Shown here: positions 7,989-40,979 of the stretch, piece after piece
How positions within the stretch are numbered: position 1 is the first letter of the stretch
How the letters are laid out: the number at the start of each line of letters is the position of its first letter
Source of the DNA: Escherichia phage SP15
Reading direction: 5' to 3' (one strand)
DNA: 64,000 bases
Sequence record: AP019559
Made by a program: the position numbers and the translations under genes
Notes under the pieces: model-generated
Database searches by the model: none
Seen by the model: the letters and a program-made list of their open reading frames with translations, nothing else
Told to the model about the DNA's origin: nothing

Positions 7989-8138
7989 ATGGTTATTTTT
8001 CGAGCTATTCTGGCGGGTATCTTGGGCGCTATTTTATCTTTATTTGCAATAGCTTTCGACGTTCACGCGGTTATTATCGGCGCGGGTATCGCTGTATTTT
8101 CTTATCTGCTGGGCTGCATGACTAGTAAAGGAGAATAA
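7989..8138 (+). CDS. small hydrophobic membrane protein (49 aa, below ORF-track cutoff)
   Basis: ATG with AGGAGG RBS; single long hydrophobic segment; stop 2 nt before the next ATG. Confidence 0.4.
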   Translation: MVIFRAILAGILGAILSLFAIAFDVHAVIIGAGIAVFSYLLGCMTSKGE

Positions 8139-8140
8139 AA

Positions 8141-8353
8141 ATGATCCGCAACGTTTCCCTTGCACGTTCGAAAGGCTTTAAGCTGGTGGACGTTAACACG
8201 TTCGAGCGTGAAGATTGTAAAATCGAATATGTAGCACGTAATAAGAATGCCTTTCGTGTTACCGAGAAAAAATTCGATAAGCGCGGCAACGTGATCGCTG
8301 AAACGGTTAAACACTTTGCCACCTTTTACGCTGCGTTTCGGGGAGTGTTATAA
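8141..8353 (+). CDS. hypothetical protein
   Basis: 70-aa ORF; RBS AAAGGAGA. Confidence 0.5.
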   Translation: MIRNVSLARSKGFKLVDVNTFEREDCKIEYVARNKNAFRVTEKKFDKRGNVIAETVKHFATFYAAFRGVL

Positions 8354-8354
8354 A

Positions 8355-8699
8355 ATGGTAATTTATGAAGGTAATCGTTTTGTTGCTAATTGCCGTCCGG
8401 CATTATTAGCAAACTATTTAAACCAGCTTTCACCAGCTTATAAGGGCGTTATTAATATTTATGAGGGCACGGCGCATTATAAAATCAATGCGGTCGTTGC
8501 CCGTGAACTAGCGTTTCAATTTTTGACCTTTGCATCTTGTGACGTTCAGGTTATGGGTGAAGCGTTAATTGCAGAAAATGAAGATGATTTTATTAATATT
8601 TTCCGCAAGATATGCACCGAGCGCCTGATAATGAAAGGCGCGTATATTCAATCCACTGCGGATAGTATTGAAACAGCGTTTCGAAAGGTGGCGCAATGA
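8355..8699 (+). CDS. hypothetical protein
   Basis: Track ORF 8316..8699 trimmed to the ATG at 8355 (MVIYEGN...) with GGGAG upstream. Confidence 0.5.
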   Translation: MVIYEGNRFVANCRPALLANYLNQLSPAYKGVINIYEGTAHYKINAVVARELAFQFLTFASCDVQVMGEALIAENEDDFINIFRKICTERLIMKGAYIQSTADSIETAFRKVAQ

Positions 8700-8799
8700 G
8701 ATTATATATTTTCGCGGGTAATGTTGAGGCTGCAAATGATTCCGCTGGTGGCGATAACGTTCGTCACTACTGGCAAAAATATATTTACTAGGGGTTATT

Positions 8800-8994
8800 A
8801 TGAGCAATAAAATTATTGTGACCAAAACTACCACAACGGTTGACGTTTTTTATGTGCCTGATACGCCGGAAAACCGGCAAGCGGTCGAGCGGGGCGAATA
8901 TGATAGCGTTATTTATGATCACGATGGTTACTACCAACATTTGGTGGATTCCTACGGGGAGGAGGAAAAAATCACGCATCAATTACCGGACTGA
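8800..8994 (+). CDS. hypothetical acidic protein
   Basis: 64-aa ORF, last gene of the plus-strand cassette. Confidence 0.5.
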   Translation: MSNKIIVTKTTTTVDVFYVPDTPENRQAVERGEYDSVIYDHDGYYQHLVDSYGEEEKITHQLPD

Positions 8995-9001
8995 CAACAA
9001 G

Positions 9002-9023
9002 CGGGGATCTGCTCCCCGTTTTT
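9002..9023 (+). terminator. Rho-independent terminator
   Basis: CGGGGA-tctgc-TCCCCG stem-loop followed by TTTTT directly after the stop at 8994. Confidence 0.7.
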
Positions 9024-9137
9024 CACGCCTCCAGTTAAATACCTCTTTGTTTTAGTATCCCCACCAAAATTAAACGCGTCAGAATGCGATCTAGGACGTT
9101 TTAGCGGTATATTAGAATTATTCACTACATAGGAATA

Positions 9138-9245
9138 CTGTATATTTATACAGTAGGATAAGCTGTGGATAAGTCTGTTAATAACGCTTCAAAATGGCTA
9201 GGATTCTGTCAAGTCAAATCGTGCTGTTAATAAGTCTGTGGATAA
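9138..9245. promoter_or_regulatory. DnaA-box cluster B (three boxes, opposite orientation to cluster A) including the right arm of the 40-bp inverted repeat (9138-9177)
   Basis: Reverse-complement TTATCCACA boxes at 9164-9172 and 9237-9245, variant at 9153-9161. Confidence 0.7.
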
Positions 9246-9255
9246 CTTAAATAAC

Positions 9256-9440
9256 AGTGTTTCTCACTTCCATTCTTAAATGAGAATCATTATCATTCGC
9301 ATTCCACTGTCTAACCGATAATCATTTCACTTTTTGAATAGTTCTCATTTCACTTCTTAAATGAGAATCATTATCATTCGCATTCCACTTCTTAAATGAT
9401 AATGATTCTCATTCAAAGTCGCAGGGCAATTGCCCTGCGC
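9256..9440. repeat. nested direct and inverted repeats ending in the perfect 18-bp palindrome GCAGGGCAATTGCCCTGC (9421-9438)
   Basis: 34-bp unit CTTAAATGAGAATCATTATCATTCGCATTCCACT at 9275-9308 and 9356-9389; inverted copy AATGATAATGATTCTCATT at 9395-9413. Confidence 0.75.
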
Positions 9441-9444
9441 TTTT

Positions 9445-10045
9445 GTGCAAATCCGACATTTGCCCCCATGGATTACGCGTGGGCATGTATGTGCAAATCC
9501 GACAATTTTTGGTAGTGTGCAAATCCGACCCGAAAAATTTTTATAGTGTGCAAATCCGACAATGAATTTTCCCAAAAACTCCAGCAATCACGAACTGCGT
9601 TCGAATCCTGTGGAATTAGCTAGAATATGTGCAAATCCGACATGTGTTGAGGTGTGCGAATCCGACAAGATTTTTATGACTTCGATGAGAAGGTGTGTGA
9701 TTGTATAGGTTTGAGGAAAAGATGAGAGAGCGAGAGAAATTTTGGGGCTAGAAGGATGTGGGCGCAGGATTGGTGCGGAGCACCTGATTTGCAGGTATTT
9801 TGGGGGAGAGTTGAGATAATTTGGGAAGATTTGAGATAGGTGCAGAAAAAGTAAAATTTTATTAGCTAAATGGGGCAAAATAGCTTGACAAGTGAAAATT
9901 CTTGTGGCTCTAAAAACTCAGGCAATCACGGGCCTTCGGCCCGAAATAATGCTGCTATTTTCAGGAGAGTAAGAGTTCCTAAAAACTTAGGCGTTTGTGC
10001 AAATCCGACCATAAATTTCTAGAAACACAATGTGCAAATCCGACA
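9445..10045. repeat. array of eight GTGCAAATCCGAC(A/C) 14-mers, irregularly spaced
   Basis: Copies at 9445, 9491, 9527, 9548, 9629, 9654 (one mismatch), 10007, 10032; a ninth copy inside a CDS at 11823. Confidence 0.8.
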
Positions 10046-10201
10046 GTAAAATCCAGAAATGTGTTTTCAAAAAATGTCTCCTAGAAATAACCGCCCTCCC
10101 TATAACCGCCCTATATTAACCGCCTATTGCTAGAGTTTCTAGGAACAATGAAAACCGCCTGAGTTGACTAGAGTTTTCCTAGAAACTTAGGAGTCTAGAA
10201 G
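10017..10201. repeat. TCTAGAAA-type palindromic motifs and four AACCGCC(C)T direct repeats
   Basis: TTTCTAGAAAC at 10017, CCTAGAAAT at 10081, AGTTTCTAGG at 10133, TTCCTAGAAAC at 10185; AACCGCC at about 10089, 10104, 10119, 10152. Confidence 0.6.
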
Positions 10202-10510
10202 AAAGTGTTGTGCCATCCTAGTAGATGAGCGGCAACAGGTGTATCATCTTGAACACAGATATTGCCTTTAAAAATATTTAAATAATATAAAGAAAAAGAG
10301 ACCCCCAATTTCATGAGAATCTCTCCTGGGGGCGCGTGATTAATTACGTGAGTACTCATGCCGTCATACCGCTGTTGCTAGGCCGCAAGCTATACGAGAC
10401 ATTCGTGTAATAATCATCGCCCCTAGAGTTAATCAACTAGAGTAGTTGTTAATCTATGAGATTATTATAACATGTTTGGGTATGAGAATGCAAGAACTTT
10501 TTGTTAACTT

Positions 10511-11224
10511 TTATTCCTCCTTCTTGGATTTGAGTTTGATGCCTAAGGATGCGAAGTAGATATAAGTTGCTAAATAGGAAGCAGTGGATCCTGTATCATC
10601 GTAATCCATAGTTCCACGAGCTGCTCTAGTATATTCAGGAGCATAGTTTAATATCGTGTAACTTGGCATTCCTAGCGACTTACATAGTTCTTTAAATGTA
10701 TCTTCGTATTTATGGCACATGAAATGCACAGCATTTTCTAATGGCGTTAACTCTAGATCTTTATGGAGAGCTACAGTCAAACTCGCTAGCATTGTGCCAA
10801 TCCCACGATAAACTTCATCTTTAACTAGAGTTGGTTTCTCTTTTTCTAGTGGAGGAAGGTGGGCATATTTCCCATGTTTGAAAGGGATAAGATCTTCGCT
10901 AGCTAATGCTTCTTTAAATGATGCTTCCTTAAATCTTGGGAGATCTTCATCGATTAGGATATGAATAGCATTAGAGGAGAAACCTTTTGCTTCAGGATCT
11001 AAAGCTTTCAACGCTTTATTCACTTCTACATATGAGCCTGACCAAACTACTTGTTTTGCATCTCGATCATACTTGATCTTACCTTTATCCCACCTAGCAG
11101 GATAATGATCTCCTAAAAACATTACTGCATATTTTTCTTCCTCAGTTAGCTGGGAAAGACTCTTTTGTGTAGCACCACGCGCTAACTGAATGAGACGTTT
11201 TAATTTTTCAGCTTCTTTAATCAT
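10511..11224 (-). CDS. hypothetical protein, possible GNAT-type acetyltransferase
   Basis: 237-aa ORF; 'VYRGIGTML' resembles a GNAT acetyl-CoA binding motif; weak. Confidence 0.45.
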   Translation of the reverse strand: MIKEAEKLKRLIQLARGATQKSLSQLTEEEKYAVMFLGDHYPARWDKGKIKYDRDAKQVVWSGSYVEVNKALKALDPEAKGFSSNAIHILIDEDLPRFKEASFKEALASEDLIPFKHGKYAHLPPLEKEKPTLVKDEVYRGIGTMLASLTVALHKDLELTPLENAVHFMCHKYEDTFKELCKSLGMPSYTILNYAPEYTRAARGTMDYDDTGSTASYLATYIYFASLGIKLKSKKEE

Positions 11225-11568
11225 ATATCAGACGCTTGCTCCCCTGTTTCTTTCTTTTCTGTCTTAGGTTTTCTTGCAACTTCTCCAAAGGTTCCTTTGG
11301 TTCTTTCTTTAGCTGGAAGATCTACTTTATACCATAGGATTCCTAATTGTTGCGCTAAATGGGCTATATTCTTTGGTGTTATACTTGGAACATCTTCCCT
11401 ATCAGAAACTTTAGAAATTATATCAAGTAACTCTCCTATTTTTGGCTTACTAGTAGTTATTAGAATATATTCTAATGTTTCTATTTCTACATTTTCATCT
11501 TTATAGTAAAGACTAAGAGTAATTAAATCGTCACCAGCAGAAGTTATTTTTGTTTTACCAAATATCAT
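11221..11568 (-). CDS. hypothetical protein
   Basis: 115-aa ORF, 4-nt overlap with the downstream gene. Confidence 0.5.
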   Translation of the reverse strand: MIFGKTKITSAGDDLITLSLYYKDENVEIETLEYILITTSKPKIGELLDIISKVSDREDVPSITPKNIAHLAQQLGILWYKVDLPAKERTKGTFGEVARKPKTEKKETGEQASDI

Positions 11569-12173
11569 TAACTACCTCTCTTATCTTCATTAAGAGCAGC
11601 TCCCAACGCTTCAAGGATAGTATCATTTATACTCCCAGGCCTAAGATTATTAAAGTGAGTAACATAGATGGGACTTCTAAAACCCTCAGCATCCGCAGGT
11701 GCTACGCTTCGCATATCAGATTCAAAAGCTTCTTGAGTATGTTGCAACTGTACAGAAGGGCCGTAATCTTCACCAACTCGATATGAGGAATTATTTTCTA
11801 TAACGCCACCACATGGAACATTGTGCAAATCCGACGTTATTTTAGGATTAAATGCGATACCACTTTTGGTCCAGGAACCTCCAACAGTCACAGGAGTACT
11901 AGGGCGGTTCACCTCAGTCTTTACGAGTTTATAACCAGCATCTATTAATGCGTTAATAAGGTTATCAGCTGGAATCCGAGCCTTGCCAAAGATCTTACGA
12001 GCTTCTTTTAATTTATGCTCAAGATCTTTACAGGCTTTAATATCAGTGTGCGCAAAGGTTAATTTCATAGATTTGAACTGTACAGTGGCAGTTAAGTCTT
12101 TAAAATCATAATCCCATGTATTTAATTCATGGTCTGGTACTACTTGAACAGGTTGTTGTGCATATAAAGTCAT
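11568..12173 (-). CDS. hypothetical protein
   Basis: 201-aa ORF; contains one copy of the 14-mer repeat at 11823-11836. Confidence 0.55.
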   Translation of the reverse strand: MTLYAQQPVQVVPDHELNTWDYDFKDLTATVQFKSMKLTFAHTDIKACKDLEHKLKEARKIFGKARIPADNLINALIDAGYKLVKTEVNRPSTPVTVGGSWTKSGIAFNPKITSDLHNVPCGGVIENNSSYRVGEDYGPSVQLQHTQEAFESDMRSVAPADAEGFRSPIYVTHFNNLRPGSINDTILEALGAALNEDKRGS

Positions 12174-12358
12174 TACTTATTCTCCAATTTGTCTAGTAGC
12201 TTGTGCGCTGCTATGTTATATTGTTTAAGTTCACGATTAAGGATTTGGTTTTCACACTTTAGCTCTAGATTCTTATTATTAAGAATATTGCAGATCAGTA
12301 GAAGTGCTAATATAACTAGCAAGGAACCTACGAGCATTAAAAGAAAAAGAGTTTCCAT
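12173..12358 (-). CDS. small membrane protein
   Basis: 61 aa, N-terminal hydrophobic helix then charged tail. Confidence 0.5.
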   Translation of the reverse strand: METLFLLMLVGSLLVILALLLICNILNNKNLELKCENQILNRELKQYNIAAHKLLDKLENK

Positions 12359-12591
12359 TATTTAACTCCCATGTAACGTTTGAGATATATGATGAAGTCT
12401 TCTGCTGTATGCTCTACGCTACCTTGAGCTACAAATAGTTTGAGGGCTTCACGTTGTAGTTTAAGAGCAGCCAACTCACCACGTAATTTTATTAGATCTT
12501 CTGCTAGTTCTTTAGCTCTGCGCATAATAGCAAATGATACAAATGTTACAATAAATAACATAACTGCTAAAATAATTACTATGATCTCCAT
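12358..12591 (-). CDS. small membrane protein
   Basis: 77 aa, N-terminal transmembrane helix and amphipathic helix. Confidence 0.5.
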   Translation of the reverse strand: MEIIVIILAVMLFIVTFVSFAIMRRAKELAEDLIKLRGELAALKLQREALKLFVAQGSVEHTAEDFIIYLKRYMGVK

Positions 12592-12869
12592 ATTAACATC
12601 CAGCTCTTATCATATATTTGGGCATGTTCTACTAATTCATTTATCGATGTAGAATTATCGTAGATACCCTCTAGTAAACGTTTTCTGTCAAATTTATCAA
12701 CCAAATACTCTGTGCCATTTATCACTACCCTATACAGCTCTGGAACTAAGGGGTGTTTGTTTGGTATTGGGCGACTACCTAAGTCTATTTCATTATATCC
12801 CCACGTTGTTTTAAATAGTTTGTTGCTAAGTGCTGCTAGTGGGTTTGACCATACAATATAGCTACTCAC
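12579..12869 (-). CDS. hypothetical protein
   Basis: 96-aa ORF co-oriented. Confidence 0.5.
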   Translation of the reverse strand: MSSYIVWSNPLAALSNKLFKTTWGYNEIDLGSRPIPNKHPLVPELYRVVINGTEYLVDKFDRKRLLEGIYDNSTSINELVEHAQIYDKSWMLIWRS

Positions 12870-13308
12870 TACTTATCTCCATTCTTAGCTTTGAAAACTT
12901 ATTATACCAAATTATATGATTATCGTCAATTACAAATTTATGGTAACATGCTGGTACGGTATAAGTTCCATAATCCGTGACACGCTGCACAACCTTGTGT
13001 GCACACAGTCGACAACCATGCCCTTCTAAATGAGATCTAGCAGTTTGCCAGTAATAACCATCGTGATCTGGACAATAGATCTCGACTTGCTGTTGCATTG
13101 TCTTATAATTTACACGCTCATATCCGAAGAAAGCCCCGTGAGCTGCAACGGCTTTCTTGATAAATATAAGGTTTAGTGCTTCTTGCTGGAAGTCGGGATG
13201 TAGCTGCTTAATCTTAGTTCTATTAATAGATCCATCCGATTTAATGAACCTATTTATTGGAAAGTTGTTAGCTTCCTCGATTAATAATTCATTTACTTTC
13301 TCTCTCAT
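12862..13308 (-). CDS. hypothetical Cys/His-rich protein
   Basis: Track ORF 12862..13410 trimmed to the ATG at 13308 (stop-start TAAtATG coupling with the upstream gene); 'CPDHDG...HGCRLC'. Confidence 0.45.
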   Translation of the reverse strand: MREKVNELLIEEANNFPINRFIKSDGSINRTKIKQLHPDFQQEALNLIFIKKAVAAHGAFFGYERVNYKTMQQQVEIYCPDHDGYYWQTARSHLEGHGCRLCAHKVVQRVTDYGTYTVPACYHKFVIDDNHIIWYNKFSKLRMEISSE

Positions 13309-13309
13309 A

Positions 13310-13588
13310 TTAAATAGTCTCACAGTTAAGGTAGAAACATTCGTAAGCATCTCCAGTAAACTCTTTATCTTGTAGTAAACACTTAGCTTGGTCTTCCGGT
13401 ACTCCAGCATCTAATAATTGTTGTTTACTTGGCTTTTCAGCGAATACTTTTACAAAATACTCACCATCCTGATTATACTCATTTATATCTCTGGTAAGGA
13501 CATATACTTGCATTTGAAGTTCCTTGAAAACATAAAAGGCCAGAACAATTAAGTCCTGGCCTCTAGAATTAATGAAGTTGTTTACCAC
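13310..13588 (-). CDS. hypothetical protein
   Basis: 92-aa ORF. Confidence 0.5.
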   Translation of the reverse strand: MVNNFINSRGQDLIVLAFYVFKELQMQVYVLTRDINEYNQDGEYFVKVFAEKPSKQQLLDAGVPEDQAKCLLQDKEFTGDAYECFYLNCETI

Positions 13589-13940
13589 TTCGTAACATAG
13601 TGGCTGTTTCCATAAGACCTAGCGTAGCATCACGCTTATTGATCTGTTTACCAAGTTCATCGGTACGTTTACCAATGTAAGCGTTAATAGCCATATTCAT
13701 AGCTGTAGCGAGATCTTCTTTGGTTATCTCTTCATCGTCTAAGGCTAATTTAGCCAAAGAATCAAATGTGCTAGAGAGTCCTATAAGATCTGAGGTTTCT
13801 CCAGCCAGAATAGGATTAATATTATCTACTGTTACTTCTAGCATGGAGTTAACAATATCTTCACCATCTATTAGACCAGATTCAATATTACTCTCCCACT
13901 CCTTCATCTGCTCCAATAATGGATTTTTCTTTTCTGTCAT
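13569..13940 (-). CDS. hypothetical protein
   Basis: Track ORF 13569..14006; ATG at 13940 with AGGAAA upstream preferred; start uncertain. Confidence 0.45.
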   Translation of the reverse strand: MTEKKNPLLEQMKEWESNIESGLIDGEDIVNSMLEVTVDNINPILAGETSDLIGLSSTFDSLAKLALDDEEITKEDLATAMNMAINAYIGKRTDELGKQINKRDATLGLMETATMLRSGKQLH

Positions 13941-14349
13941 GGTAGAGGTTTCCTGTGTCAGTCGGTAAGAAGGATGATTGAGCTTTAGGCGGATGTTGTT
14001 TAGCAATCCAGCTAAGAATCAGTACACGACTAGGAACAATATCAGTGTTGTACCAGAAATCATGAACCCATTGACGAGCATTCTCAAACTTACCAAATTT
14101 ATATGCTTTCTTAAACAATTCAAACCCAAAACAATCTGGTGTAAAGTCTACTTCACGATATTGAACTACTTTAGAACCAGTTAGGTCTTGGATCGCTGCA
14201 TTAATTTCTGTATGCGAGAATTTTGTTTCGTGAAACTTATTAAAGAATCGGTAGTTGAAGCGTCCGTTCGTTTCGACAAACAACTGGATGAAAAGATCGT
14301 TAAATTGGTTATCAAACCAGTAATTCTGTAGTTGTTGTAGTGCTGTCAT
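13888..14349 (-). CDS. hypothetical protein
   Basis: 153-aa ORF, aromatic-rich. Confidence 0.5.
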   Translation of the reverse strand: MTALQQLQNYWFDNQFNDLFIQLFVETNGRFNYRFFNKFHETKFSHTEINAAIQDLTGSKVVQYREVDFTPDCFGFELFKKAYKFGKFENARQWVHDFWYNTDIVPSRVLILSWIAKQHPPKAQSSFLPTDTGNLYHDRKEKSIIGADEGVGE

Positions 14350-14546
14350 TTACGAACTCCGTTAATTGCCACGATGATGCCTTCATACATAAAAGGAAGT
14401 AGTTCAGAAGTGTAGAAGATATTTTCCGTTATTCCTAGATGTCGAAAAAGTATATTAAATAATGCTGTTAGAAATACAATCTGGGGCAGTAATACAAAAT
14501 ACTCAGTTACAATCTTTGGTGCCCGATAAACAAGACGTTTTATCAT
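14346..14546 (-). CDS. small membrane protein
   Basis: 66 aa, hydrophobic. Confidence 0.45.
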   Translation of the reverse strand: MIKRLVYRAPKIVTEYFVLLPQIVFLTALFNILFRHLGITENIFYTSELLPFMYEGIIVAINGVRK

Positions 14547-14645
14547 TGTTTTTAAGTCTCCTTATTACTTTGGCCTGCTCCACAATAATGAAAACTGCGA
14601 GCACTAATAGTGCTATTAGCCCCGCAGTAATTGGTACTAAATCAA

Positions 14646-28524: not shown

Positions 28525-28600
28525 TGGTAGTTAGTAGTGGATTTGAACCACTGTAGTCGCTCCGTATGAAGGAGGTGCATAACCACTCTGCCAACTAACT
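28525..28600 (-). tRNA. tRNA, anticodon CAT (Met, or Ile if lysidine-modified)
   Basis: Hand fold: 7-bp acceptor, T-arm GGTTCAAATCC, anticodon loop TTCATAC, encoded CCA. Confidence 0.6.
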
Positions 28601-28696
28601 GTTATGTTTTACTAGACTAAGTAAGTATTCTTTATACTCTTTAGACCAATTAGCTTTTTTAAACTTTCCTGGACGCATAGTCTTAATTCCTAGATT

Positions 28697-29228: not shown

Positions 29229-29395
29229 GATGATCCCGTTATTTCAACGGGATTTCTTTTTCAATAACAGGAGACTTATCAGTCATAACTGTCATTGCCA
29301 TTTGTTGTAGAAATTCAAAGGTGAAGGCTACACGTTCTTCACCAATCTCTACTTCTACACGTTTCTTTTGTTTATCAATCTTTACTTTTAGGTTG

Positions 29396-29617
29396 TCAGC
29401 CATCTTCGGGTTCTCGTTGCTGTACTACTTCTAGCCAGTCTGGTAGAAGAAACTTTGTACGAAATTCTTCGTAAGTTTCTTTGGGATAAAAGCTAAAACC
29501 TCCTTTCTCATCATTCAGGATAACAGAACCGTCAGTTTGTTCATATGCTCGATATGTTTCTCCAATAATGATAACTCGCTTATCAGTACTTTTATTATGA
29601 AACTCAAAAACGTGCAT
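29396..29617 (-). CDS. hypothetical protein
   Basis: 73 aa. Confidence 0.5.
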   Translation of the reverse strand: MHVFEFHNKSTDKRVIIIGETYRAYEQTDGSVILNDEKGGFSFYPKETYEEFRTKFLLPDWLEVVQQREPEDG

Positions 29618-30185: not shown

Positions 30186-30414
30186 AATTGAAAACTCGCA
30201 GGGTTAGCGAAACCTTCCTCAATTAGCATGTTCTAGAATACTAATCAAGTTATCTCCTATTGCACGCAGCTCAAGACGAGTACGAATTTTCAATTGTGGC
30301 AGCTCTCAGAAACTCTTCTATTCTAGCCCCAGAAGCTTACCCCCGAACGCATGTCGGGAAAGTCTTTCCAAGCGCATCAAATAGCACCGTTACACTTTGA
30401 GCCATTGATGTATC

Positions 30415-30499
30415 AAGGAACAGAAGGATTTGAACCTTCACGAGATAGACCATTTATCTCAACCGCTTTTAAGGTATATTTCTAGGAGTGGATGTTCCT
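30415..30499 (-). other. degenerate tRNA-like element
   Basis: Perfect 7-bp acceptor AGGAACA/TGTTCCT, T-arm GAAGG-TTCAAAT-CCTTC, variable-arm-like hairpin; no canonical D or anticodon arm; no CCA. Confidence 0.4.
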
Positions 30500-30552
30500 A
30501 GTAAACCTATTCGGCAGTCCCGTCTACCAATTCCGGCATATTCCAAGAATTT

Positions 30553-30726
30553 TTATAAACCAGCAGAAGCCTCATTTAAAGCATCAACAATAGCTTCACG
30601 TTGGGTCATTCCATACCCAGTGGAATCTAGGTGTGGCAAATAAGCCATCCATCCCTTATCTGTTTCATGAAGGCATGCTTTAAATTTTTTACCGTCCTTC
30701 ATTGTTACAGTAACTGTTTTGCTCAT
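30553..30726 (-). CDS. hypothetical small protein (57 aa, below ORF-track cutoff)
   Basis: ATG with AAGGAA RBS, fills the gap between tRNA genes. Confidence 0.4.
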   Translation of the reverse strand: MSKTVTVTMKDGKKFKACLHETDKGWMAYLPHLDSTGYGMTQREAIVDALNEASAGL

Positions 30727-30746
30727 AATGATTCCTTATAGTTAAT

Positions 30747-30836
30747 TGGAGGAAGGTAATGGAGTCGAACCATCACCGTATCACTACAGCGGGCTAGTTT
30801 TCAAGACTAGTTGCGTACCACTACGCCCTACCTTCC
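30747..30836 (-). tRNA. tRNA-Ser (TGA), class II
   Basis: Hand fold: loop CTTGAAA, long variable arm. Confidence 0.8.
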
Positions 30837-30843
30837 ATTTGTT

Positions 30844-30934
30844 TGGCGGAAGAGGAGAGATTTGAACTCTCAAGCCGTTTTACCAGTCAGCCACTTTCCA
30901 AGCGGTTTTCGTCGCCAATTCGATTTGCTCTTCC
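30844..30934 (-). tRNA. class II tRNA, anticodon unresolved (possibly Ser GGA)
   Basis: Acceptor GGAAGAG/CTCTTCC and T-arm resemble tRNA-Ser; D/anticodon region does not fold canonically by hand. Confidence 0.4.
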
Positions 30935-31046
30935 AAAAATAAGATGATGCCTCTATCACACCAGGCAGTTACGCCCCGCTGGGATTCGAACCCATTAAAA
31001 CAGCTCAACCGAGATAGTAGGTTTAATTTACTCTGACCATCAAATT

Positions 31047-31798: not shown

Positions 31799-31987
31799 AT
31801 TAGTAGCCATTATATACTTCTTTAATAGAATGGACTTTTAAGTAAGGATGATTAATCCCAAACTCCGCCATTACTTCTTTTTCATCTTTTCCATAATGTG
31901 CAAGTAAGGATCTTGAGGTATTATTACCTAAACGTTTGTCATTTACTACTAATCGAAATACTTTCATTTCGAAATCCTCTATTAAAA

Positions 31988-34224: not shown

Positions 34225-34299
34225 TGGTGCACCCTGTTCGTATCGAACGAACCTCTCAAGCTCTTCAGGCAAGCGCTAATCCATCTCAGCTAAAGGTGC
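34225..34299 (-). tRNA. tRNA-Phe (GAA)
   Basis: Hand fold: U8-A9, D-stem GCTG/TAGC, loop CTGAAGA; two U-U mismatches in anticodon stem. Confidence 0.55.
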
Positions 34300-34305
34300 A
34301 AATTT

Positions 34306-34382
34306 TGGCAAACCTACTAGGACTCGAACCTAGACCGTACGGTTTTGGAGACCGACATGCTGTCCAGTAACACTCTAGGAAT
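34306..34382 (-). tRNA. tRNA-Trp (CCA)
   Basis: Hand fold: loop CTCCAAA, perfect T-stem; acceptor has two U-U mismatches. Confidence 0.55.
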
Positions 34383-34390
34383 GCAGAAAT

Positions 34391-34467
34391 TGGCGTCCTG
34401 TGCGGGGATCGAACCCGCAAATCCTACCTTGAAAGGGTAGTGACTTTACCAGTTTGTCTAACAGGAC
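34391..34467 (-). tRNA. tRNA-Glu (TTC)
   Basis: Hand fold: all four stems perfect, loop CTTTCAA. Confidence 0.85.
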
Positions 34468-34474
34468 TTAAATT

Positions 34475-34565
34475 TGGTGTTGGATGATGGAGTCGAACCA
34501 CCCGAGACCCTTCCGAGTCGGCAGATTTACAGTCTGCTTCGCTACCTCTACGATACTAATCCAAC
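34475..34565 (-). tRNA. tRNA-Tyr (GTA), class II
   Basis: Hand fold: perfect acceptor GTTGGAT/ATCCAAC, anticodon arm GCAGA-CTGTAAA-TCTGC, long variable arm. Confidence 0.75.
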
Positions 34566-34630
34566 ATATTTAGAAGTATTCAAAAATTCTCATTTAAACA
34601 CTTTTAAATATGTTTTCAAATTAGGTAACT

Positions 34631-34687
34631 ATTATACCAAGTTTTAAGGCACTGAGCAAGTCAAATTTTAAAGAACTTGCTCAGTGC
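34631..34687 (-). promoter_or_regulatory. early promoter for the tRNA cluster overlapping a 13-bp perfect inverted repeat
   Basis: Minus strand TTGCTC, 17 nt, TATAAT (34631-34659); inverted repeat GCACTGAGCAAGT 34649-34661 / 34675-34687. Confidence 0.55.
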
Positions 34688-34695
34688 TATATTAG

Positions 34696-34971
34696 TTAGT
34701 CGAACTTAGGAGTGACAGTTAAGGAGAACGGAAGTTCGAAAACTTCTTCACCCTCATTACTAACGGTAACTACACGACCTTTAAGTTCAGACATTAAAAT
34801 ATCAATATCAGCTTTTGCATCTGGAGCCATACCAGCTTCAACACATTTAGCTTTAACTTCCGGCAGAAGTTCGACATCGTAGAAATAAAGCCATTCAATC
34901 TCACCTTCCCAGCCTTCCCAGGATTTACAGATTGCACTTTCAATACCAGTTGCTACAACACGATTTTGCAT
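34696..34971 (-). CDS. hypothetical acidic protein
   Basis: 91 aa. Confidence 0.5.
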   Translation of the reverse strand: MQNRVVATGIESAICKSWEGWEGEIEWLYFYDVELLPEVKAKCVEAGMAPDAKADIDILMSELKGRVVTVSNEGEEVFELPFSLTVTPKFD

Positions 34972-35061
34972 TCGTTAACTCCTTCATCAATTTATACAAC
35001 TATTATATCAGAAATTTAAAGCAAAAGGCAAGTACATTTTTAAAAATTCTGTTTGGAGGAG

Positions 35062-35268
35062 CTAAACTCCAGATTCTTCAGCTAAGTCTAGGCTAATAAG
35101 AGTTATAGCCATAATTGCTGCACCGTGTTCTTTTTCTCCGGTGTTTTTAGCAGAGTCTATAATAGTCTTAATCTGTTCGTAATAGCCTTTTACTTCTTGT
35201 TCAATACCTGCCTCGGCTATCATGCCTTTAGTCATGATTCGTTGCATAGTAATTTCACGGTTAGCCAT
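35062..35268 (-). CDS. hypothetical protein
   Basis: 68 aa. Confidence 0.5.
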   Translation of the reverse strand: MANREITMQRIMTKGMIAEAGIEQEVKGYYEQIKTIIDSAKNTGEKEHGAAIMAITLISLDLAEESGV

Positions 35269-35428
35269 GATGTTTCTCCAGCTTCATTTTTAATAGTTTA
35301 CAAATGAAATCAACGTCTTCATCTGTACCTAGATCTCTATCTTCAAGAGTTGCCTTGAAGTTTTTAGTCAATTCCATGAGGATAACTTCTCTAGAACGAC
35401 GTGTTGGCGGAGGTGGATGTCTATACAT
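35261..35428 (-). CDS. hypothetical small protein (55 aa, below ORF-track cutoff)
   Basis: ATG with AAGGAAATAAG RBS; 8-nt overlap with the downstream gene. Confidence 0.35.
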   Translation of the reverse strand: MYRHPPPPTRRSREVILMELTKNFKATLEDRDLGTDEDVDFICKLLKMKLEKHHG

Positions 35429-35443
35429 CTTATTTCCTTAGTT

Positions 35444-35520
35444 TGGTAGGGGTGGTGGGATTCGAACCCACAAAACCTGAATTTTAAGTCCAGTACCTAT
35501 GCCAATTCGATTACACCCCC
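35444..35520 (-). tRNA. tRNA with anticodon TAA (Leu by anticodon) but class I architecture
   Basis: Hand fold: good acceptor and T-stem, loop CTTAAAA, 5-nt variable loop, discriminator A. Confidence 0.55.
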
Positions 35521-35527
35521 GTGTAGT

Positions 35528-35716
35528 TTAGTCAATTACTTTTGAGGCTTCAAGGTAGTCGATATAGTGTATGTTTTCTACCGTAATCATATAATCTGTC
35601 ACTTTATCCATAGCTTGGGCTTCAGAGGTAGCTCTGGCTAACCTATATCCTTTTTTATATTCATCCGGGTATTCTCTATCTTGGATAAACACAACATAAA
35701 CTATATATAGATCCAT
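35528..35716 (-). CDS. hypothetical protein
   Basis: 62 aa. Confidence 0.5.
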   Translation of the reverse strand: MDLYIVYVVFIQDREYPDEYKKGYRLARATSEAQAMDKVTDYMITVENIHYIDYLEASKVID

Positions 35717-35735
35717 TTGTGACCTCTATTTAATT

Positions 35736-35813
35736 TGGTGGCTCCCCGAGGATTCGAACCTACGTACCTTCCGGTTATGAGCCGGGTGCTCATACCATAT
35801 GAGCTTGAGAACC
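35736..35813 (-). tRNA. tRNA, anticodon CAT (third copy)
   Basis: Hand fold: perfect D-stem GCTC/GAGC, loop CTCATAA; weak T-stem. Confidence 0.5.
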
Positions 35814-35819
35814 AGAATT

Positions 35820-35908
35820 TGGCGGAAGAAGCGGGAATCGAACCCACAAGGCTATATTTCAAACCGACAGATTAGCAATCTGCTGCAATACCGTTATGCT
35901 ATTCTTCC
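35820..35908 (-). tRNA. tRNA-Ser (GCT), class II
   Basis: Hand fold: perfect acceptor GGAAGAA/TTCTTCC, loop TTGCTAA, long variable arm. Confidence 0.75.
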
Positions 35909-35929
35909 GAATTTATAAGATATATTATA

Positions 35930-36448
35930 TTAGAAATTTAGCTTCATAGCAAGAAAATTTTTCAAGTTTTCGGTAGACATCTCATCCACATCTACGGGAG
36001 AAACAAAGCCGTTTAATTTTCTAGCAAATTTTTCACCCGCAGGATCATTATCTCCGACAGCTACCAATTTAAAAGGTAGTAATTTCAGTTGCTTTAATAA
36101 CGCTTTTCCTGGAGAAGAACCCAACATTGCTAGGGCTGGATAACCAGCATTATGTAACGCAACTGCCTTAAATACAGATTCAGCAATCAATACTACTTTT
36201 TCATCTCCATTGAGAGTTTCTAGTCCCCATACACACTGGGTAGTAGAATAAGTAAAGTATTTAGCTTCAAAGGGGCACTTACCATGACCTTTTGGAGCAG
36301 AAGGATTATAAGTTTGATAGCCCCTCAACATCCCAGAGAAGTCATACAACGGGACTGTTAGCCATCCTTCCGGACTTAACCAGCAATGATATTTATCTGT
36401 ATCAAATCCTCTAGATAAGAGGTGCTGTGTTAGCTCATCAACATTCAT
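35930..36448 (-). CDS. TOPRIM-domain protein (small primase or nuclease-like)
   Basis: Track ORF 35930..36499 trimmed to the ATG at 36448 (AAGAGGAA RBS); conserved Glu in 'LIAESVF' and 'VGDNDPAGE' DxD motif. Confidence 0.5.
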   Translation of the reverse strand: MNVDELTQHLLSRGFDTDKYHCWLSPEGWLTVPLYDFSGMLRGYQTYNPSAPKGHGKCPFEAKYFTYSTTQCVWGLETLNGDEKVVLIAESVFKAVALHNAGYPALAMLGSSPGKALLKQLKLLPFKLVAVGDNDPAGEKFARKLNGFVSPVDVDEMSTENLKNFLAMKLNF

Positions 36449-36623
36449 ATTTGGTTCCTCTTTCAAATTTATAGATATATTATACAGAGAATTTAGCATT
36501 CAAGCAATCAAATTTTTTAACTTTTTAGAGGAAAATCATAGGGCACTTAAGGATAGCAGATAAGTGGTGAGGACCAAAATTTGTGACCCCACTAAAAATT
36601 CAGGGGCAATTTTTAAAGACCCC

Positions 36624-36652
36624 TTGACATTTTCGCTGGGGTAGTGTAAAGT
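36624..36652 (+). promoter_or_regulatory. sigma70-type promoter for the plus-strand three-gene module
   Basis: Consensus TTGACA, 17-nt spacer, TAAAGT. Confidence 0.55.
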
Positions 36653-36713
36653 ATATGTTATGGATGAGTGATCAAAGAGACACACATTTTCTATATACTA
36701 GGAGGTGTCAAAA

Positions 36714-37697
36714 ATGACAGAAGAAGTAGCTAAGAGTCCTGAGACCGTCGCTAGCGTTGCAGCAGAACTGCACCGTCACGAGGAATCAGATAAGAAAAAG
36801 TGGGAGAAGGTCAGAGCCTACGAAGAAAAACATCGTGAACACGATGATGAAGAAGATGACGATGAACATTGTCATAAATATGGAAAACATAAAATGCAAG
36901 AACCAGTAAACGTATTTACTAGTGGCTTCCCTGGCCTACTGGGTGGTTACCCAGCAAACGCAGGTGCTTTCGGTGGTGAAGGTATGGGACTATTCGGAGC
37001 TATCCTAATCGGTGCTCTATTAACAGGCGGATTCGGTGGTTTCGGTGGATTCGGTGGACGTGGTGTAGTTGGTGATGGTACCGCAGTTGATGCAGTACTT
37101 CAGAACCAAGATACCGCTAGTATTCTAGCAGCTATTAACACTACTCGTACAGAAGCTAACCAGGGTACTGGAGCTGTTTTAAGCGCAGTTAACAATGGGT
37201 TTAGCCAGACATCCCAAAACCAGAGCCGTGATACTCAGTCTGTACTAACTACGATCTATGGTACAGGTGCTAATCTGTCTAATCAGATCTGTCAGGAAAC
37301 TCGCAACGTTATTCAGGGTCAGTTCGATCTTTCTCGCCAGATTGATCAATCTTTCGCAGCTAATCAGATAGCTCGTGCACAAGATAAGTTTGATTCTGCA
37401 CAGATCGCTTTCCAGCAGACTTTACAAACTAATAACCAGTTTGCCGCTGTTCAGGCTCAGATGTGTGCTAACCAGAACTCTCTGGAACGTCAGATCGCTG
37501 AATGTTGCTGTGAACTTCAGACTGCTATCGCTGGTGTAACTACTGCTCGTATTCAGGATGAGTTAGATGCATGTCGCCTACGTGAAGCAATCGCTGCGGG
37601 TAACGGTGCTAACGGTCAGGTAATTAATCAAATCGCTGTAAGTCTTGGTGCTATCACTCAGACTCTGGCTGGTCTGCAGGCTAAACTGCCGGCTTAA
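36714..37697 (+). CDS. glycine-zipper membrane protein with long Q/N/A/T-rich helical domain
   Basis: Track ORF starts at a GTG at 36705; ATG at 36714 has AGGAGG 8 nt upstream; 'GGFGGFGGFGG' hydrophobic Gly-rich segment; 'CCC' near the C-terminus; host-like codon usage. Confidence 0.6.
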   Translation: MTEEVAKSPETVASVAAELHRHEESDKKKWEKVRAYEEKHREHDDEEDDDEHCHKYGKHKMQEPVNVFTSGFPGLLGGYPANAGAFGGEGMGLFGAILIGALLTGGFGGFGGFGGRGVVGDGTAVDAVLQNQDTASILAAINTTRTEANQGTGAVLSAVNNGFSQTSQNQSRDTQSVLTTIYGTGANLSNQICQETRNVIQGQFDLSRQIDQSFAANQIARAQDKFDSAQIAFQQTLQTNNQFAAVQAQMCANQNSLERQIAECCCELQTAIAGVTTARIQDELDACRLREAIAAGNGANGQVINQIAVSLGAITQTLAGLQAKLPA

Positions 37698-37718
37698 TAT
37701 TAAGGGGAGGAGCCCATT

Positions 37719-38135
37719 ATGAGTAAATATGGTTTTGTAAATAACGGACTTAATCAAAGTATGGGCTCCCAGCAGCCCATTCCGGGTCTGGATAACCCCT
37801 ACTTACAACAATTGCAACAGCGTTTAGCAGAAGCGCAACAGATGCAACAACAACTCCAGCAAAACCCTGGAAGTGTGAGTCCTATGCAAATGATGCAGCA
37901 AATGAGCGGGCAGTCGCAAATGCCTCAACAAATGCAGCAACAGATGCCGCAGCAGCAAGTTCAGCAGCAAACCCAACAACCGCAGGTTTCTGCGGAAGGA
38001 CAGGCAGTACTAGCCCTTTTCGAAGACTTCACAAAGACAGAGGATGGGAAGCAGCTTGTATCACTTATGGGTAAGTTTAATAGCTTCTGCCAAAGCCAAG
38101 TTGCAAAAGCTCAAAATGGTGGTAATAACTCCTAA
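37719..38135 (+). CDS. Gln-rich low-complexity protein
   Basis: 138 aa with poly-Q/M stretch; RBS GGGGAGGAG. Confidence 0.55.
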   Translation: MSKYGFVNNGLNQSMGSQQPIPGLDNPYLQQLQQRLAEAQQMQQQLQQNPGSVSPMQMMQQMSGQSQMPQQMQQQMPQQQVQQQTQQPQVSAEGQAVLALFEDFTKTEDGKQLVSLMGKFNSFCQSQVAKAQNGGNNS

Positions 38136-38144
38136 GGAGAAATT

Positions 38145-38339
38145 ATGTGTTGCAGAAAACCTGTTTCGTGCTGCCCAATGCCTGTAGCACGTTGTTGCTC
38201 TCCAGCAATGTTTACACAAATACCGGCGTTCAATCCCTTTGCCTTTAAGCCTACTCTTATCCTGCCCCCTAGAGTAGATTTTCAGTCAAGATTGGCCTCC
38301 CGTATGGGTGGTTGCTGTACACCGAGAGTGTGGTTCTGA
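38145..38339 (+). CDS. Cys-doublet-rich small protein
   Basis: 64 aa with four CC doublets; RBS AAGGAGA. Confidence 0.5.
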   Translation: MCCRKPVSCCPMPVARCCSPAMFTQIPAFNPFAFKPTLILPPRVDFQSRLASRMGGCCTPRVWF

Positions 38340-38354
38340 AGAACCAAACAATAA

Positions 38355-38390
38355 AGCCCCTAGTCGAAAGACTTAGGGGCTTTTCTGTAT
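38355..38390 (+). terminator. Rho-independent terminator
   Basis: 11-bp stem with one bulge around a GAAA loop, followed by TTTTCTGTATTT. Confidence 0.65.
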
Positions 38391-38394
38391 TTAA

Positions 38395-38436
38395 GATAAA
38401 AGAAAAGCCCTGCGCTCTCCAGGGAACGCAGGGCTT
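38395..38436 (-). terminator. Rho-independent terminator for the SPFH gene
   Basis: 10-bp stem AAGCCCTGCG/CGCAGGGCTT; on the minus strand followed by TTTTCTTTT. Confidence 0.65.
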
Positions 38437-38459
38437 ACTTCAGATGTTACATGCGGATA

Positions 38460-39407
38460 TTATTTATTACGCATATCCATGATCATTTGACCATCGTAGC
38501 CAGTACCTACCACAGTCTGTGGTACACCACCTTGATATTTCTGAGCACGAATCATTTCGACTTCCAGTTGTTTCCAACGAATCATCTCAGGAGTAATGGT
38601 ACGTTGCAGTGCGGCGTTAGCTTCAGCTTCTTTCTTAGCTGCGTACAGTTTAGCATCTGCGTCACGTTCATTAGCGATAGCTTGGTTGTTGCGAGCTTCA
38701 CGATCTGCTTCTGCTTGTTTAACTTTTTGCTGTGCTTCCTGTTCAACACGAGCTAATTCAGCTTTAGCAGCATTAACCTGTTCTTCACGAACTTTGGTAT
38801 TCTGTACCTGTTCCATGATTACCGGTGGCAAAGTAATATCCTGAAGGAATACCTGCTTAACTGTGTAACCATATGGGCGTGCATACTCTTCAACTTCCTG
38901 TTGAATTGCAGTTTGCAATTGAGCCTGAATTTTAGCATCAAACAAATCTTGTGCTTTAGGTACAGACTTACCAAACTCACGAATAGTAGACAGTAATTTT
39001 TCAGTTACATATTTGTCTAACGCTTGATCCTGAGTACCTGCGTTAATACGGTTAATTGGTGCCTTAGAACCATCAAACTGCAACATAACAGTCAGGTCAA
39101 CAGTGGATTTAAACTTATCCTGGCTAGGAACCTGAAGTTTATCTAATTTTACAGCAATATCTTTTGTACTAAAAGTGTCGAAAGATGCAAATGGGTTTAC
39201 AAGATGGAAACCTGGTAATACTGGGTTAGGATCTACTTTACCCAGAAATGTTTGGGTTTTAACCGTACCATCAGAAACAATAGTATATGAATTAAAGGCT
39301 AGAATCAAGCCTGCTAAACCAACTACAGCACCAATACCCCAACGTTTAATAGTACGAATTACTTTCTGCTCAGAAGTCAGTTCTTTCATATTTTTAGTAT
39401 TAAACAT
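38460..39407 (-). CDS. SPFH/band-7 (stomatin/prohibitin/HflK-C-like) membrane protein
   Basis: N-terminal transmembrane helix, central SPFH-like region, C-terminal A/E/Q-rich coiled-coil; host-like codon usage. Confidence 0.7.
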   Translation of the reverse strand: MFNTKNMKELTSEQKVIRTIKRWGIGAVVGLAGLILAFNSYTIVSDGTVKTQTFLGKVDPNPVLPGFHLVNPFASFDTFSTKDIAVKLDKLQVPSQDKFKSTVDLTVMLQFDGSKAPINRINAGTQDQALDKYVTEKLLSTIREFGKSVPKAQDLFDAKIQAQLQTAIQQEVEEYARPYGYTVKQVFLQDITLPPVIMEQVQNTKVREEQVNAAKAELARVEQEAQQKVKQAEADREARNNQAIANERDADAKLYAAKKEAEANAALQRTITPEMIRWKQLEVEMIRAQKYQGGVPQTVVGTGYDGQMIMDMRNK

Positions 39408-39441
39408 ATATTTCCTTTGTTTTAGTTACAGTTAATAAAAT

Positions 39442-39516
39442 TGGCCGAGGTGACAGGATTCGAACCTGCATAAAGGAATTTAGAAGACTCCTGCCTCTCC
39501 CTTAGACTACACCCCG
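39442..39516 (-). tRNA. tRNA-Arg (TCT)
   Basis: Hand fold: acceptor CGGGGTG/CACCTCG, loop CTTCTAA, discriminator G; isolated from the main cluster. Confidence 0.7.
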
Positions 39517-40018
39517 TTTAAATATTTTTAAGAACTCTCGTAAAAACTCTTAAAAATACAGACGATACCGGGAGAGTCATAAGTCTCACTCATTAAGTAT
39601 TTCAAGACAAAATACAGTAACGTCTATTATTTTCCAGTTTAAGTCAGGGTGACTTAGTGGTTAGGTCCTGCGGTATATTGAGGACTCGGTTAGGCTTGGG
39701 GTCATGACTTCCCGCCTTTTGCTGCTACTCAACAGGAGTTATCGCGAATTACCTGTGCTATTGTGCACCATTAGTGACATCTCTCATGTCAGCATTTCCC
39801 ACTTTGTGGATAGCTTGAAAAACTACTCCGATATGGAGAAAAAACTTCACTATCCTAGAATACCTTCTAAAGTTCTTCTTTAGCCTGGACATAGTTAAAT
39901 CGTAATAAAACTATTCAGCAGACTGGTTGGTTAGCCTGGAACCAACTACCGCGTGGTTTAGGCAGTGCGCAACTAACCTCGGAAGCTTTTACGTTAAAAG
40001 CATCAGTTATCCAGTTCT

Positions 40019-40090
40019 TACCGACCGTAGGATTCGAACCTATATCTTCCACCAGTTACGGCTTGATAATACCAATTATACTAGGACGGC
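40019..40090 (-). other. degenerate tRNA-like element inside an ~800-bp non-coding region
   Basis: Acceptor-like pairing GCCGTCC/GGTCGGT and T-arm TAGG-TTCGAAT-CCTA; no canonical anticodon arm. Confidence 0.35.
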
Positions 40091-40328
40091 AGTGTTACTA
40101 CATAAGTGATTTCCACACCCCACTATTTATAAATTAGAGAAGAGTTTAGGGGAGAGGTTTCAGACGCCTCATTTTACACGTTCTAGCCACTAACCGGGAT
40201 TGCCGCCCCCTGTGTACTAGTTTTACAACTAACCTACCGACTCTATTCAACGAATCTTAGTGCTCGACGCATCTTACATTAAGACAAGTTCAGCGTAATC
40301 GGCTCGCTGTTCTCTAATTTATGAATAT

Positions 40329-40357
40329 ATTATACAGAATTTATAAGCATTTAGCAA
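40329..40357 (-). promoter_or_regulatory. T5-type early promoter reading into the non-coding leader, tRNA-Arg and the SPFH gene
   Basis: Minus strand TTGCTA, 17 nt, TATAAT. Confidence 0.55.
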
Positions 40358-40365
40358 ATAAATTT

Positions 40366-40809
40366 TTAATTAAATTCACCAGCAATCTGAGCAGCAGTAC
40401 CACCATCATAACGCCCAGGAAATTCTTCCTTAATCGCTTTCATCAGCATACCTTTTGTAATTCCAGGGTTTAGCTTAACTAATTCTGCAAAGTATTTACG
40501 AATCTCAGTATCAGATAACTGAGGGGGCAGATACTCCTGCAACCACTTATTTAGAATGTACTCATACTGAGCGGACTGCAAGCTATAACTATCAAGATCT
40601 TGACCATGAAGTTTAGCTTTCATCTGGTTAATGCTTTTTAGTTGAGCTTTGAGATAAGACACAAATTGTTCAGAAGTGATGAAATCTTTATTAATACGCT
40701 GAAGATCCCCGATTATGGTCTGATAGCTTTTAGCGACTTCTTTATCAGAACCATTAAACTTAGAATCCTGCAAAGCTCTACGCAAAACATCTAAAATATT
40801 CTCTTCCAT
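40366..40809 (-). CDS. hypothetical protein (possible GatB/YqeY-like domain)
   Basis: 147-aa ORF; weak similarity impression at the C-terminus. Confidence 0.45.
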   Translation of the reverse strand: MEENILDVLRRALQDSKFNGSDKEVAKSYQTIIGDLQRINKDFITSEQFVSYLKAQLKSINQMKAKLHGQDLDSYSLQSAQYEYILNKWLQEYLPPQLSDTEIRKYFAELVKLNPGITKGMLMKAIKEEFPGRYDGGTAAQIAGEFN

Positions 40810-40979
40810 TATTTCATTCCTAACGCTTGGTTAAAAGATTGTTCTGTCATAACTGCTGAGACTTTGGCGAAATCAAACTTTTTAGGGTTCGTAGTGATCT
40901 CAGCAACGTTAGAAGTTTTAACAATTTTCGTAGTACGAATACCGCGAGTGTTAACACCAATAATTACAACTGATTTCAT
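40809..40979 (-). CDS. hypothetical small protein (56 aa, below ORF-track cutoff)
   Basis: ATG with GAGGAAG RBS; TAATG stop-start overlap with the downstream gene. Confidence 0.4.
   Translation of the reverse strand: MKSVVIIGVNTRGIRTTKIVKTSNVAEITTNPKKFDFAKVSAVMTEQSFNQALGMK

Follow-up and report, generated by a model that had tools for sequence, protein, structure and literature searches.

Four short open reading frames of Escherichia phage SP15 are conserved at the protein level and probably represent accessory genes of T5-like phages

Introduction

Are open reading frames of fewer than 60 codons in a compact phage genome genes, or accidents of base composition? This question is raised by a 64,000-nucleotide stretch of Escherichia phage SP15 (sequence record AP019559), hereafter the window, in which a first-pass annotation made from the sequence alone had singled out four short open reading frames (ORFs) as small protein-coding genes: ORF1 (7989–8138, + strand, 49 aa), ORF2 (30553–30726, − strand, 57 aa), ORF3 (35261–35428, − strand, 55 aa) and ORF4 (40809–40979, − strand, 56 aa). 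All four are present at these positions. Random ORFs of 30–80 aa are abundant on both strands of the AT-rich window, and because chance ORFs of such size are common an open frame alone means nothing. Here we report that all four ORFs are under protein-level purifying selection, and that they are very probably real accessory genes of a T5-like phage, translated and non-essential, and orthologous to T5.013, T5.063, T5.074 and T5.082, respectively.

Megablast of 29–42 kb of the window matched hundreds of T5-like phages, with NBEco001 and vB_EcoS_FFH1 the closest at ~98% identity, and by its sequence the window is the left half of a Tequintavirus genome. Its first ~10 kb correspond to the T5 left terminal repeat, the first-step-transfer (FST) region with the pre-early genes, and its 23 tRNA genes, every one of them encoded on the minus strand, fall within 28.5–39.5 kb.

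Results

Each of the four ORFs begins 6 nt downstream of a Shine–Dalgarno (SD) motif: AGGAGG at 7977–7982 (+) before ATG 7989 of ORF1, TAAGGA at 30733–30738 (−) before ATG 30726 of ORF2, TAAGGA at 35435–35440 (−) before ATG 35428 of ORF3, and GAGAGGAAG before ATG 40979 of ORF4. With all 2240 ATGs of the window scored as background, an SD match of at least 6 nt at suitable spacing was found at only ~1.5%, placing the good ribosome-binding sites (RBSs) reported in the first-pass annotation well above background. The four ORFs are also oriented in the same direction as their neighbors and occupy stretches that are otherwise unannotated, both as had been proposed.

Conservation of the reading frame in relatives had been named as the check on this proposal, with frames disrupted in close relatives as the outcome that would speak against it. 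We therefore fetched 98 related loci from IMG/VR and found the frame open at every locus examined, clearly the opposite of disruption; ORF1 is intact at 31 of 31 loci and ORF3 in 25 of 25 relatives, the sole oddity being the loss of 3 aa from a single ORF3 copy. Length variants in ORF1 and ORF2 are all in-frame. Variable sites fall predominantly at third codon positions, with counts at the first, second and third positions of 16/9/32 for ORF1, 18/15/39 for ORF2, 9/5/28 for ORF3 and 14/9/33 for ORF4, and the all-pairs ratio of nonsynonymous to synonymous polymorphism (pN/pS) across the related loci is 0.22, 0.36, 0.07 and 0.17, respectively. In a six-frame control, zero stops and the lowest pN/pS coincided in the annotated frame only, and the antisense −1 frame, which showed the expected "shadow" effect, scored worse. 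Together, frame conservation, third-position bias, pN/pS and the six-frame control support the proposal that these are genuine small protein-coding genes.

Stop–start coupling with adjacent genes had been claimed for the whole set and holds for three of its members. ORF1 runs through a TAAaaATG junction into the T5.014 ortholog (8141–8353, + strand, 70 aa), which starts 2 nt past the ORF1 stop and has its own SD motif, AAAGGAG, within the end of ORF1; this junction is kept in 29 of 31 relatives. The start of the T5.073 ortholog (35062–35268, − strand, 68 aa) overlaps the ORF3 stop by 8 nt (ATGGCTAA), an arrangement kept in 24 of 25 relatives. The start of the T5.081 ortholog (40366–40809, − strand, 147 aa), whose C-terminus is YqeY-like, overlaps the ORF4 stop by 1 nt as TAATG in 27 of 27 relatives, and also in Enterobacter phage KKP_3711 despite its divergence. 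For ORF2 there is no protein gene next door to couple to, since it is flanked on both sides by RNA genes, a tRNA-Ser and a tRNA-like RNA.

These junctions, kept in nearly all relatives, invite the explanation that some of the ORFs matter chiefly by being translated and not through their peptide, as upstream coupling or leader ORFs for a downstream gene (ORF1 for T5.014, ORF3 for T5.073 and ORF4 for the YqeY-like gene), with the polyproline run of ORF3 serving as a ribosome-pausing, EF-P-dependent element. EF-P-dependent stalling at polyproline is well established. ORF3 does carry PPPP (PPPPP in T5) at codons 4/5–8, and knock-down of each of the four genes has no fitness effect (PMC11879866). 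Set against this, amino-acid constraint extends along the whole ORF, beyond the junctions or the proline run (pN/pS 0.07–0.22), and ORF4 is predicted with confidence to fold as a compact domain and stays above 88% identity while the YqeY-like gene downstream is mosaic across T5-like phages, with alleles 45–60% identical (for example in EC105 and Bf23). Leader function as the explanation for the ORFs is unlikely, and coupling and a functional peptide are compatible, not mutually exclusive.

An alternative that we consider highly improbable is that at least one ORF is an accidental frame in non-coding DNA that happens to be conserved, for example a spacer or RNA element of the tRNA cluster, and has been propagated by annotation pipelines. 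The abundance of random ORFs in the window favors it, as do the position of ORF2 and ORF3 among highly conserved tRNA and stable-RNA genes and the near absence of stops from the antisense shadow frames of ORF3 and ORF4. Comparative analysis has already largely refuted it, however: only in the annotated frame do third-position bias and low pN/pS appear, strong SD motifs stand at the correct spacing, the length variants of ORF1 keep the frame, and ORF2 exists as two alleles that are only ~59% identical, with further homologs at 49–62% identity, yet all of these are open.

The antisense shadow ORFs lie at 35304–35441 (+) opposite ORF3 and at 40864–41043 (+) opposite ORF4, and contain 0.1–0.2 stops per sequence in relatives. 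We rejected them as the real genes because they have higher pN/pS than the sense frames, lack an SD motif and are oriented opposite to the transcription units; such frames could mislead gene callers.

ORF1, the short allele of the T5.013 ortholog, lies, as in T5, within the pre-early FST region with the T5.012 ortholog on one side and the T5.014 ortholog on the other, and matches phrog_5607 over its full length (E 5.2e-32, residues 1–49 on profile positions 1–49/49). ATG 7989 is the start common to all 31 ORF1 relatives; ATG 7983, used in the mechanical ORF list, was discarded because it overlaps the SD motif, has no SD motif of its own and is missing from many relatives. The ORF1 product is very hydrophobic (grand average of hydropathy 1.68), with two hydrophobic stretches at residues 2–23 and 28–44 separated by only D-V-H-A, a pattern that fits a hairpin of two transmembrane (TM) segments, and T5.013 is annotated in the T5 reference genome as "contains two transmembrane domains". 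Among relatives, ORF1 comes in short (48–49 aa) and long (59–60 aa) alleles, the latter with extra residues inserted in frame in the loop that joins the hydrophobic segments; the short form is that of the window, the long form that of T5.

Published work on T5.013 is divided. Mahata et al. (PMC8201957) cloned T5.013, with its natural RBS, along with twelve other pre-early genes and recorded no toxicity. A preprint from 2026 (10.64898/2026.04.02.716235) reports that 13 of 17 T5 pre-early genes can be deleted, 013 included, that gene 013 is one of seven T5 pre-early genes toxic when expressed alone, and that it is the one compromising cell integrity, an effect credited by the authors to its two predicted TM domains; the same authors acknowledge the discrepancy with Mahata et al. 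on 013 toxicity. Because of the lysis-like toxicity published for the T5 ortholog, we favor, with moderate confidence and by analogy, a model in which the ORF1 product would enter the inner membrane as a two-TM hairpin and disturb it. From the anatomy of the region, ORF1 would be made from first-step-transfer DNA as part of a tightly packed pre-early operon, 012-013-014-015.

We also considered a class II holin or pinholin identity for ORF1. Two TM segments in ~50–70 aa agree with such a protein, but the gene lies in the pre-early FST region and not in a lysis cassette beside an endolysin; in T5 the holin (T5.041) and the endolysin (T5.040) are encoded at another place, not near the ORF1 ortholog. 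A holin would be expected to be expressed late, whereas RNA-seq of the Tequintavirus Bas33 (PMC13250531) shows the ORF1 ortholog bas33_0175 transcribed with the pre-early class.

Two further features were noted around ORF1. A 19-nt near-perfect palindrome, GGGGGATATTATATCCCCC, occupies 7951–7969 (+), after the T5.012 ortholog has ended and before the SD motif of ORF1; it is not an obvious terminator, because no T-tract follows it on the coding strand, and a role as RNA hairpin or protein-binding site is possible. Downstream, the segment at 8086–8644 of the T5 record NC_005859 (window 8141–8699) carries an annotated activity that, according to the original paper and the CRISPRi-ART table, belongs to T5.015 (345 nt); the annotation looks like an off-by-one error that has spread to relatives.

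ORF2, a soluble protein encoded within the tRNA cluster, matches phrog_16298 over its full length (E 2e-41, 1–57/57). Directly upstream, 20 nt from its start, is tRNA-Ser(UGA) (30747–30836, −), and the ORF2 SD motif lies inside this 20-nt spacer. Beginning 7 nt past the ORF2 stop is a tRNA-like stable RNA (30415–30545, −), a homolog of T5 RNA1 that matches the tRNA model below threshold, interrupted by a long insertion (25.9 bits, E 0.0056). The ORF2 gene is missing from many Tequintaviruses (107 records, compared with 437 for ORF4), where gene and tRNA-Ser allele have disappeared as a unit: FFH1 and Bas33 carry, in place of the cassette of tRNA-Ser(UGA) and ORF2, another tRNA-Ser(UGA) allele that has no ORF. 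A full HMMER scan of 1.84 billion representatives returned two real homologs, 62% and 49% identical to ORF2, both located in tRNA clusters 0–21 nt from tRNA-Ser genes and one on a contig resembling Klebsiella T5-like phages; the remaining matches, at E values up to 0.001, are longer, multi-stretch proteins that we took as spurious.

This distribution bears on whether the ORF2 family is functionally tied to the flanking RNA genes or is a random passenger. A tie is suggested because the gene, in each setting recovered and across alleles only 49–62% identical, lies within 0–21 nt of tRNA-Ser in Demerecviridae tRNA clusters and is gained and lost with the tRNA-Ser(UGA) allele; ORF2 might then bind, protect or help process phage tRNA-Ser or RNA1, possibly as a counter-measure to host tRNA-targeting defense. 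We regard such a tie as improbable. The gene order Ala-Leu-...-ORF is shared with the divergent homologs, which makes inherited synteny the simplest explanation of the tRNA-Ser adjacency.

Structural analysis of ORF2 was based on an AlphaFold2 model of moderate confidence (predicted local distance difference test, pLDDT, 72; alignment of 4 near-identical sequences) that shows a beta-beta-beta-alpha arrangement. This predicted secondary structure and a resemblance of GWMAYLPHLDSTGYGMTQREAIVDALNEA to a G-x-T-x-x-E-A-like motif suggested a HicB-like antitoxin-type domain that would neutralize a host HicA-like or other RNase toxin, an identity that is very doubtful and that we rejected: no HicB-type Pfam or NCBIfam match was found at E values up to 1 for ORF2 or its divergent homologs, no relevant match came from a profile search of PDB sequences, the best Foldseek match of the pLDDT 72 model in the PDB was citrate synthase at E 0.24, with HicB absent from the 50 matches listed, and the adjacent genes are tRNAs and not a HicA-type toxin. 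A match of ORF2 to LSM/Sm proteins (Pfam E 0.016; PDB 6tfl E 0.083) covers a 23-residue beta-hairpin, is below threshold and lacks Foldseek support, and was set aside as chance.

Several RNA features surround ORF2. The segment from ORF2 to tRNA-His (30186–30552, −) is near-invariant in the window, FFH1, Bas33 and T5, more conserved than ORF2, and matches the T5 stable RNAs RNA1, RNAI and RNAIII, which are annotated with "unknown functions". At ~30843–30935 (−) is a tRNA-Ser(GGA)-like sequence homologous to T5 tRNA-Ser2(GGA) that received no ARAGORN call and no Rfam call at gathering score, its only match being 19.7 bits to a long-arm tRNA-Sec model; the sequence may represent a degenerate tRNA or a non-canonical one. 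Farther along the cluster, 35739–35813 (−) is called as a tRNA by Rfam (40.3 bits) and not by ARAGORN, at a place where T5 has tRNA-Ile2(CAU) and FFH1 has tRNA-Met(CAT).

ORF3 matches phrog_7716 over its full length (E 3.2e-43, 1–55/55) and is directly preceded by tRNA-Leu(UAA) (35444–35520, −), with its SD motif inside the 15-nt spacer after that gene. The N-terminus of ORF3 is basic and polyproline-rich (MYRHPPPPTRRSRE) and the remainder is acidic. The proline run is retained in relatives via synonymous changes at codons 5–7, which supports a start at 35428 and not at the internal Met18; Met18 was also disfavored as a start by the lack of an SD motif and by protein-level selection on the codons upstream of it. 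A reading still weaker than the tie between ORF2 and its flanking RNA genes is that the run acts as an EF-P-dependent translational sensor gating the overlapping T5.073 ortholog.

The position of ORF2 and ORF3 suggests that both would be read from long tRNA-cluster transcripts, each beginning 15–20 nt past a tRNA 3′ end. With the SD motif inside so short a spacer, tRNA processing would leave each ORF a minimal leader.

ORF4 is a member of the Pfam family DUF7616 (PF24592; E 4e-32, 110.4 bits against a cutoff of 27, positions 1–56/56). A sigma-70 promoter, TTGCTT-17 nt-TATAAT at 41011–41039 (−), stands ahead of ORF4 and the YqeY-like gene and is near-identical to the T5 early promoter P-D/E 33; a generic consensus scan misses it because its −35 hexamer matches only 3 of 6 positions. 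By this anatomy, ORF4 would open an early operon of two genes under the control of a homolog of the strong T5 promoter P-D/E 33, and would be translationally coupled through TAATG to the YqeY-like gene. The two genes have a near-equal distribution, with 437 records for ORF4 and 453 for its partner. The Pfam YqeY match of the partner (E 1.7e-5) falls just under the gathering score; genes of the T5.081 type are variously named "tRNA amidotransferase" or "recombination-related exonuclease" in databases, and only this weak YqeY match backs any name.

The ORF4 protein is basic (isoelectric point 10.4), and its AlphaFold model is confident (pLDDT 91.9), with a beta-beta-alpha-beta-alpha order of elements. 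Comparison of the model with the PDB gave nothing significant (best E 0.35), and comparison with a viral structure library returned only uncharacterized orthologs from Yersinia phage phiR2-01 and Pantoea phage AAS21. Likenesses to the small phage inhibitors Dmd and p56 are faint, with TM-scores below 0.5, and no function was transferable from them.

The four ORFs are already known and are ordinary, standard T5 genes. Small proteins of this kind had been described as easily missed, which does not apply here: the T5 reference genome and most relatives carry annotations for the whole set, each has its own PHROG family with full-length matches (phrog_5607, phrog_16298, phrog_7716 and phrog_5077 for ORF1 to ORF4; E 5e-32 to 3e-43), and ORF4 also has a Pfam family. 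By tblastn, ORF1 to ORF4 occur in 350, 107, 229 and 437 phage records, nearly always annotated "hypothetical protein"; in FFH1, ORF3 is ORF72 and ORF4 is ORF80, and in Bas33 the orthologs of ORF4, ORF3 and ORF1 are bas33_0078, bas33_0092 and bas33_0175. The Bas33 RNA-seq data show bas33_0078 as an early gene at ~1000 transcripts per million (PMC13250531). In the CRISPRi-ART genome-wide knock-down, T5.013, T5.063, T5.074 and T5.082 are all scored "Not Fit" with 4–7 guides each (PMC11879866, supplementary file 16). We found no paper on T5.063, T5.074, T5.082 or DUF7616.

The earlier list of four is incomplete, as the window also has four further T5-annotated ORFs below 60 aa, orthologs of T5.009 (4905–4994), T5.057 (28598–28678), T5.059 (29242–29403) and T5.065 (31803–31967), all on the minus strand and 80–96% identical to their T5 counterparts. 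Counterparts of T5.031, T5.066 and T5.070 were not found in the window.

Discussion

Our results identify the four ORFs as small genes maintained for their protein products, and what these products do is less firmly drawn. The first-pass annotation had described such small proteins as typical phage host-takeover factors. This description finds experimental support only for the ORF1 ortholog, a pre-early two-TM gene with lysis-like toxicity in one study (10.64898/2026.04.02.716235), with the reservation that the same gene was non-toxic in another (PMC8201957); none of the four orthologs has a fitness effect on knock-down (PMC11879866), and for ORF2, ORF3 and ORF4 we found no report of toxicity or of a host target. 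For these three the likeliest role, by inference, is that of small soluble proteins that bind a partner from host or phage and are relevant only in certain hosts or conditions.

Several points weigh against the picture of four translated accessory proteins with a membrane-active ORF1 and three small binders. Direct evidence of translation, by mass spectrometry or ribosome profiling, was reached for none of the four ORFs. Mahata et al. (PMC8201957) observed no toxic effect of gene 013, and the published toxicity tests used the long-loop T5 allele where the window carries the short one. No homologs of ORF2, ORF3 or ORF4 were found outside Demerecviridae among 5.8 billion clustered proteins or, for ORF2, in the HMMER scan as well, and no significant structural neighbor was found for ORF2 in the PDB or for ORF4 in the PDB and the viral library, uncharacterized orthologs aside. 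The mosaicism of the YqeY-like partner while ORF4 stays above 88% identity argues against a tightly co-evolving complex of the two, and the binder role of ORF2, ORF3 and ORF4 is a default reading and not a result.

The T5 reference annotation has carried these genes for some two decades, their families are catalogued and a genome-wide fitness screen has covered them, and the value of the exercise is one of calibration: reading raw sequence found real small genes via their RBSs, orientation and junction architecture. The families of ORF2, ORF3 and ORF4 are strongly conserved though dispensable in the laboratory.

Comparison with the T5 orthologs places each ORF in a familiar setting. T5 gp013 (YP_006841.1) shares with ORF1 its position, its hydrophobic N- and C-terminal segments and an SD-led start; at 59 aa, it contains an 11-aa hydrophilic loop that is absent from the 49-aa allele of the window. 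T5.063 (YP_006891.1) is 96.5% identical to ORF2 and occupies the same place between tRNA-Ser(UGA) and RNA1, with no material difference. T5.074 (YP_006902.1) is 96% identical to ORF3 and has the same 8-nt overlap with T5.073; the two differ in PPPPP for T5 and HPPPP for the window, and in their upstream neighbor, which is the hegA homing-endonuclease gene in T5 and tRNA-Leu(UAA) in the window. T5.082 has the same promoter homolog (P-D/E 33) and TAATG coupling to T5.081 as ORF4, and its protein is 91% identical, with a difference at the N-terminus (MKSVVII against MKNLIVI) and no functional difference seen.

Set beside known small early takeover proteins, such as T7 gp0.4 and the toxic T5 pre-early proteins 008, 011 and 015, the four ORFs have no sequence or structural relation to them. 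They are alike in small size, early or pre-early expression and laboratory dispensability, and toxicity on ectopic expression is shared with such takeover proteins by the ORF1 ortholog only.

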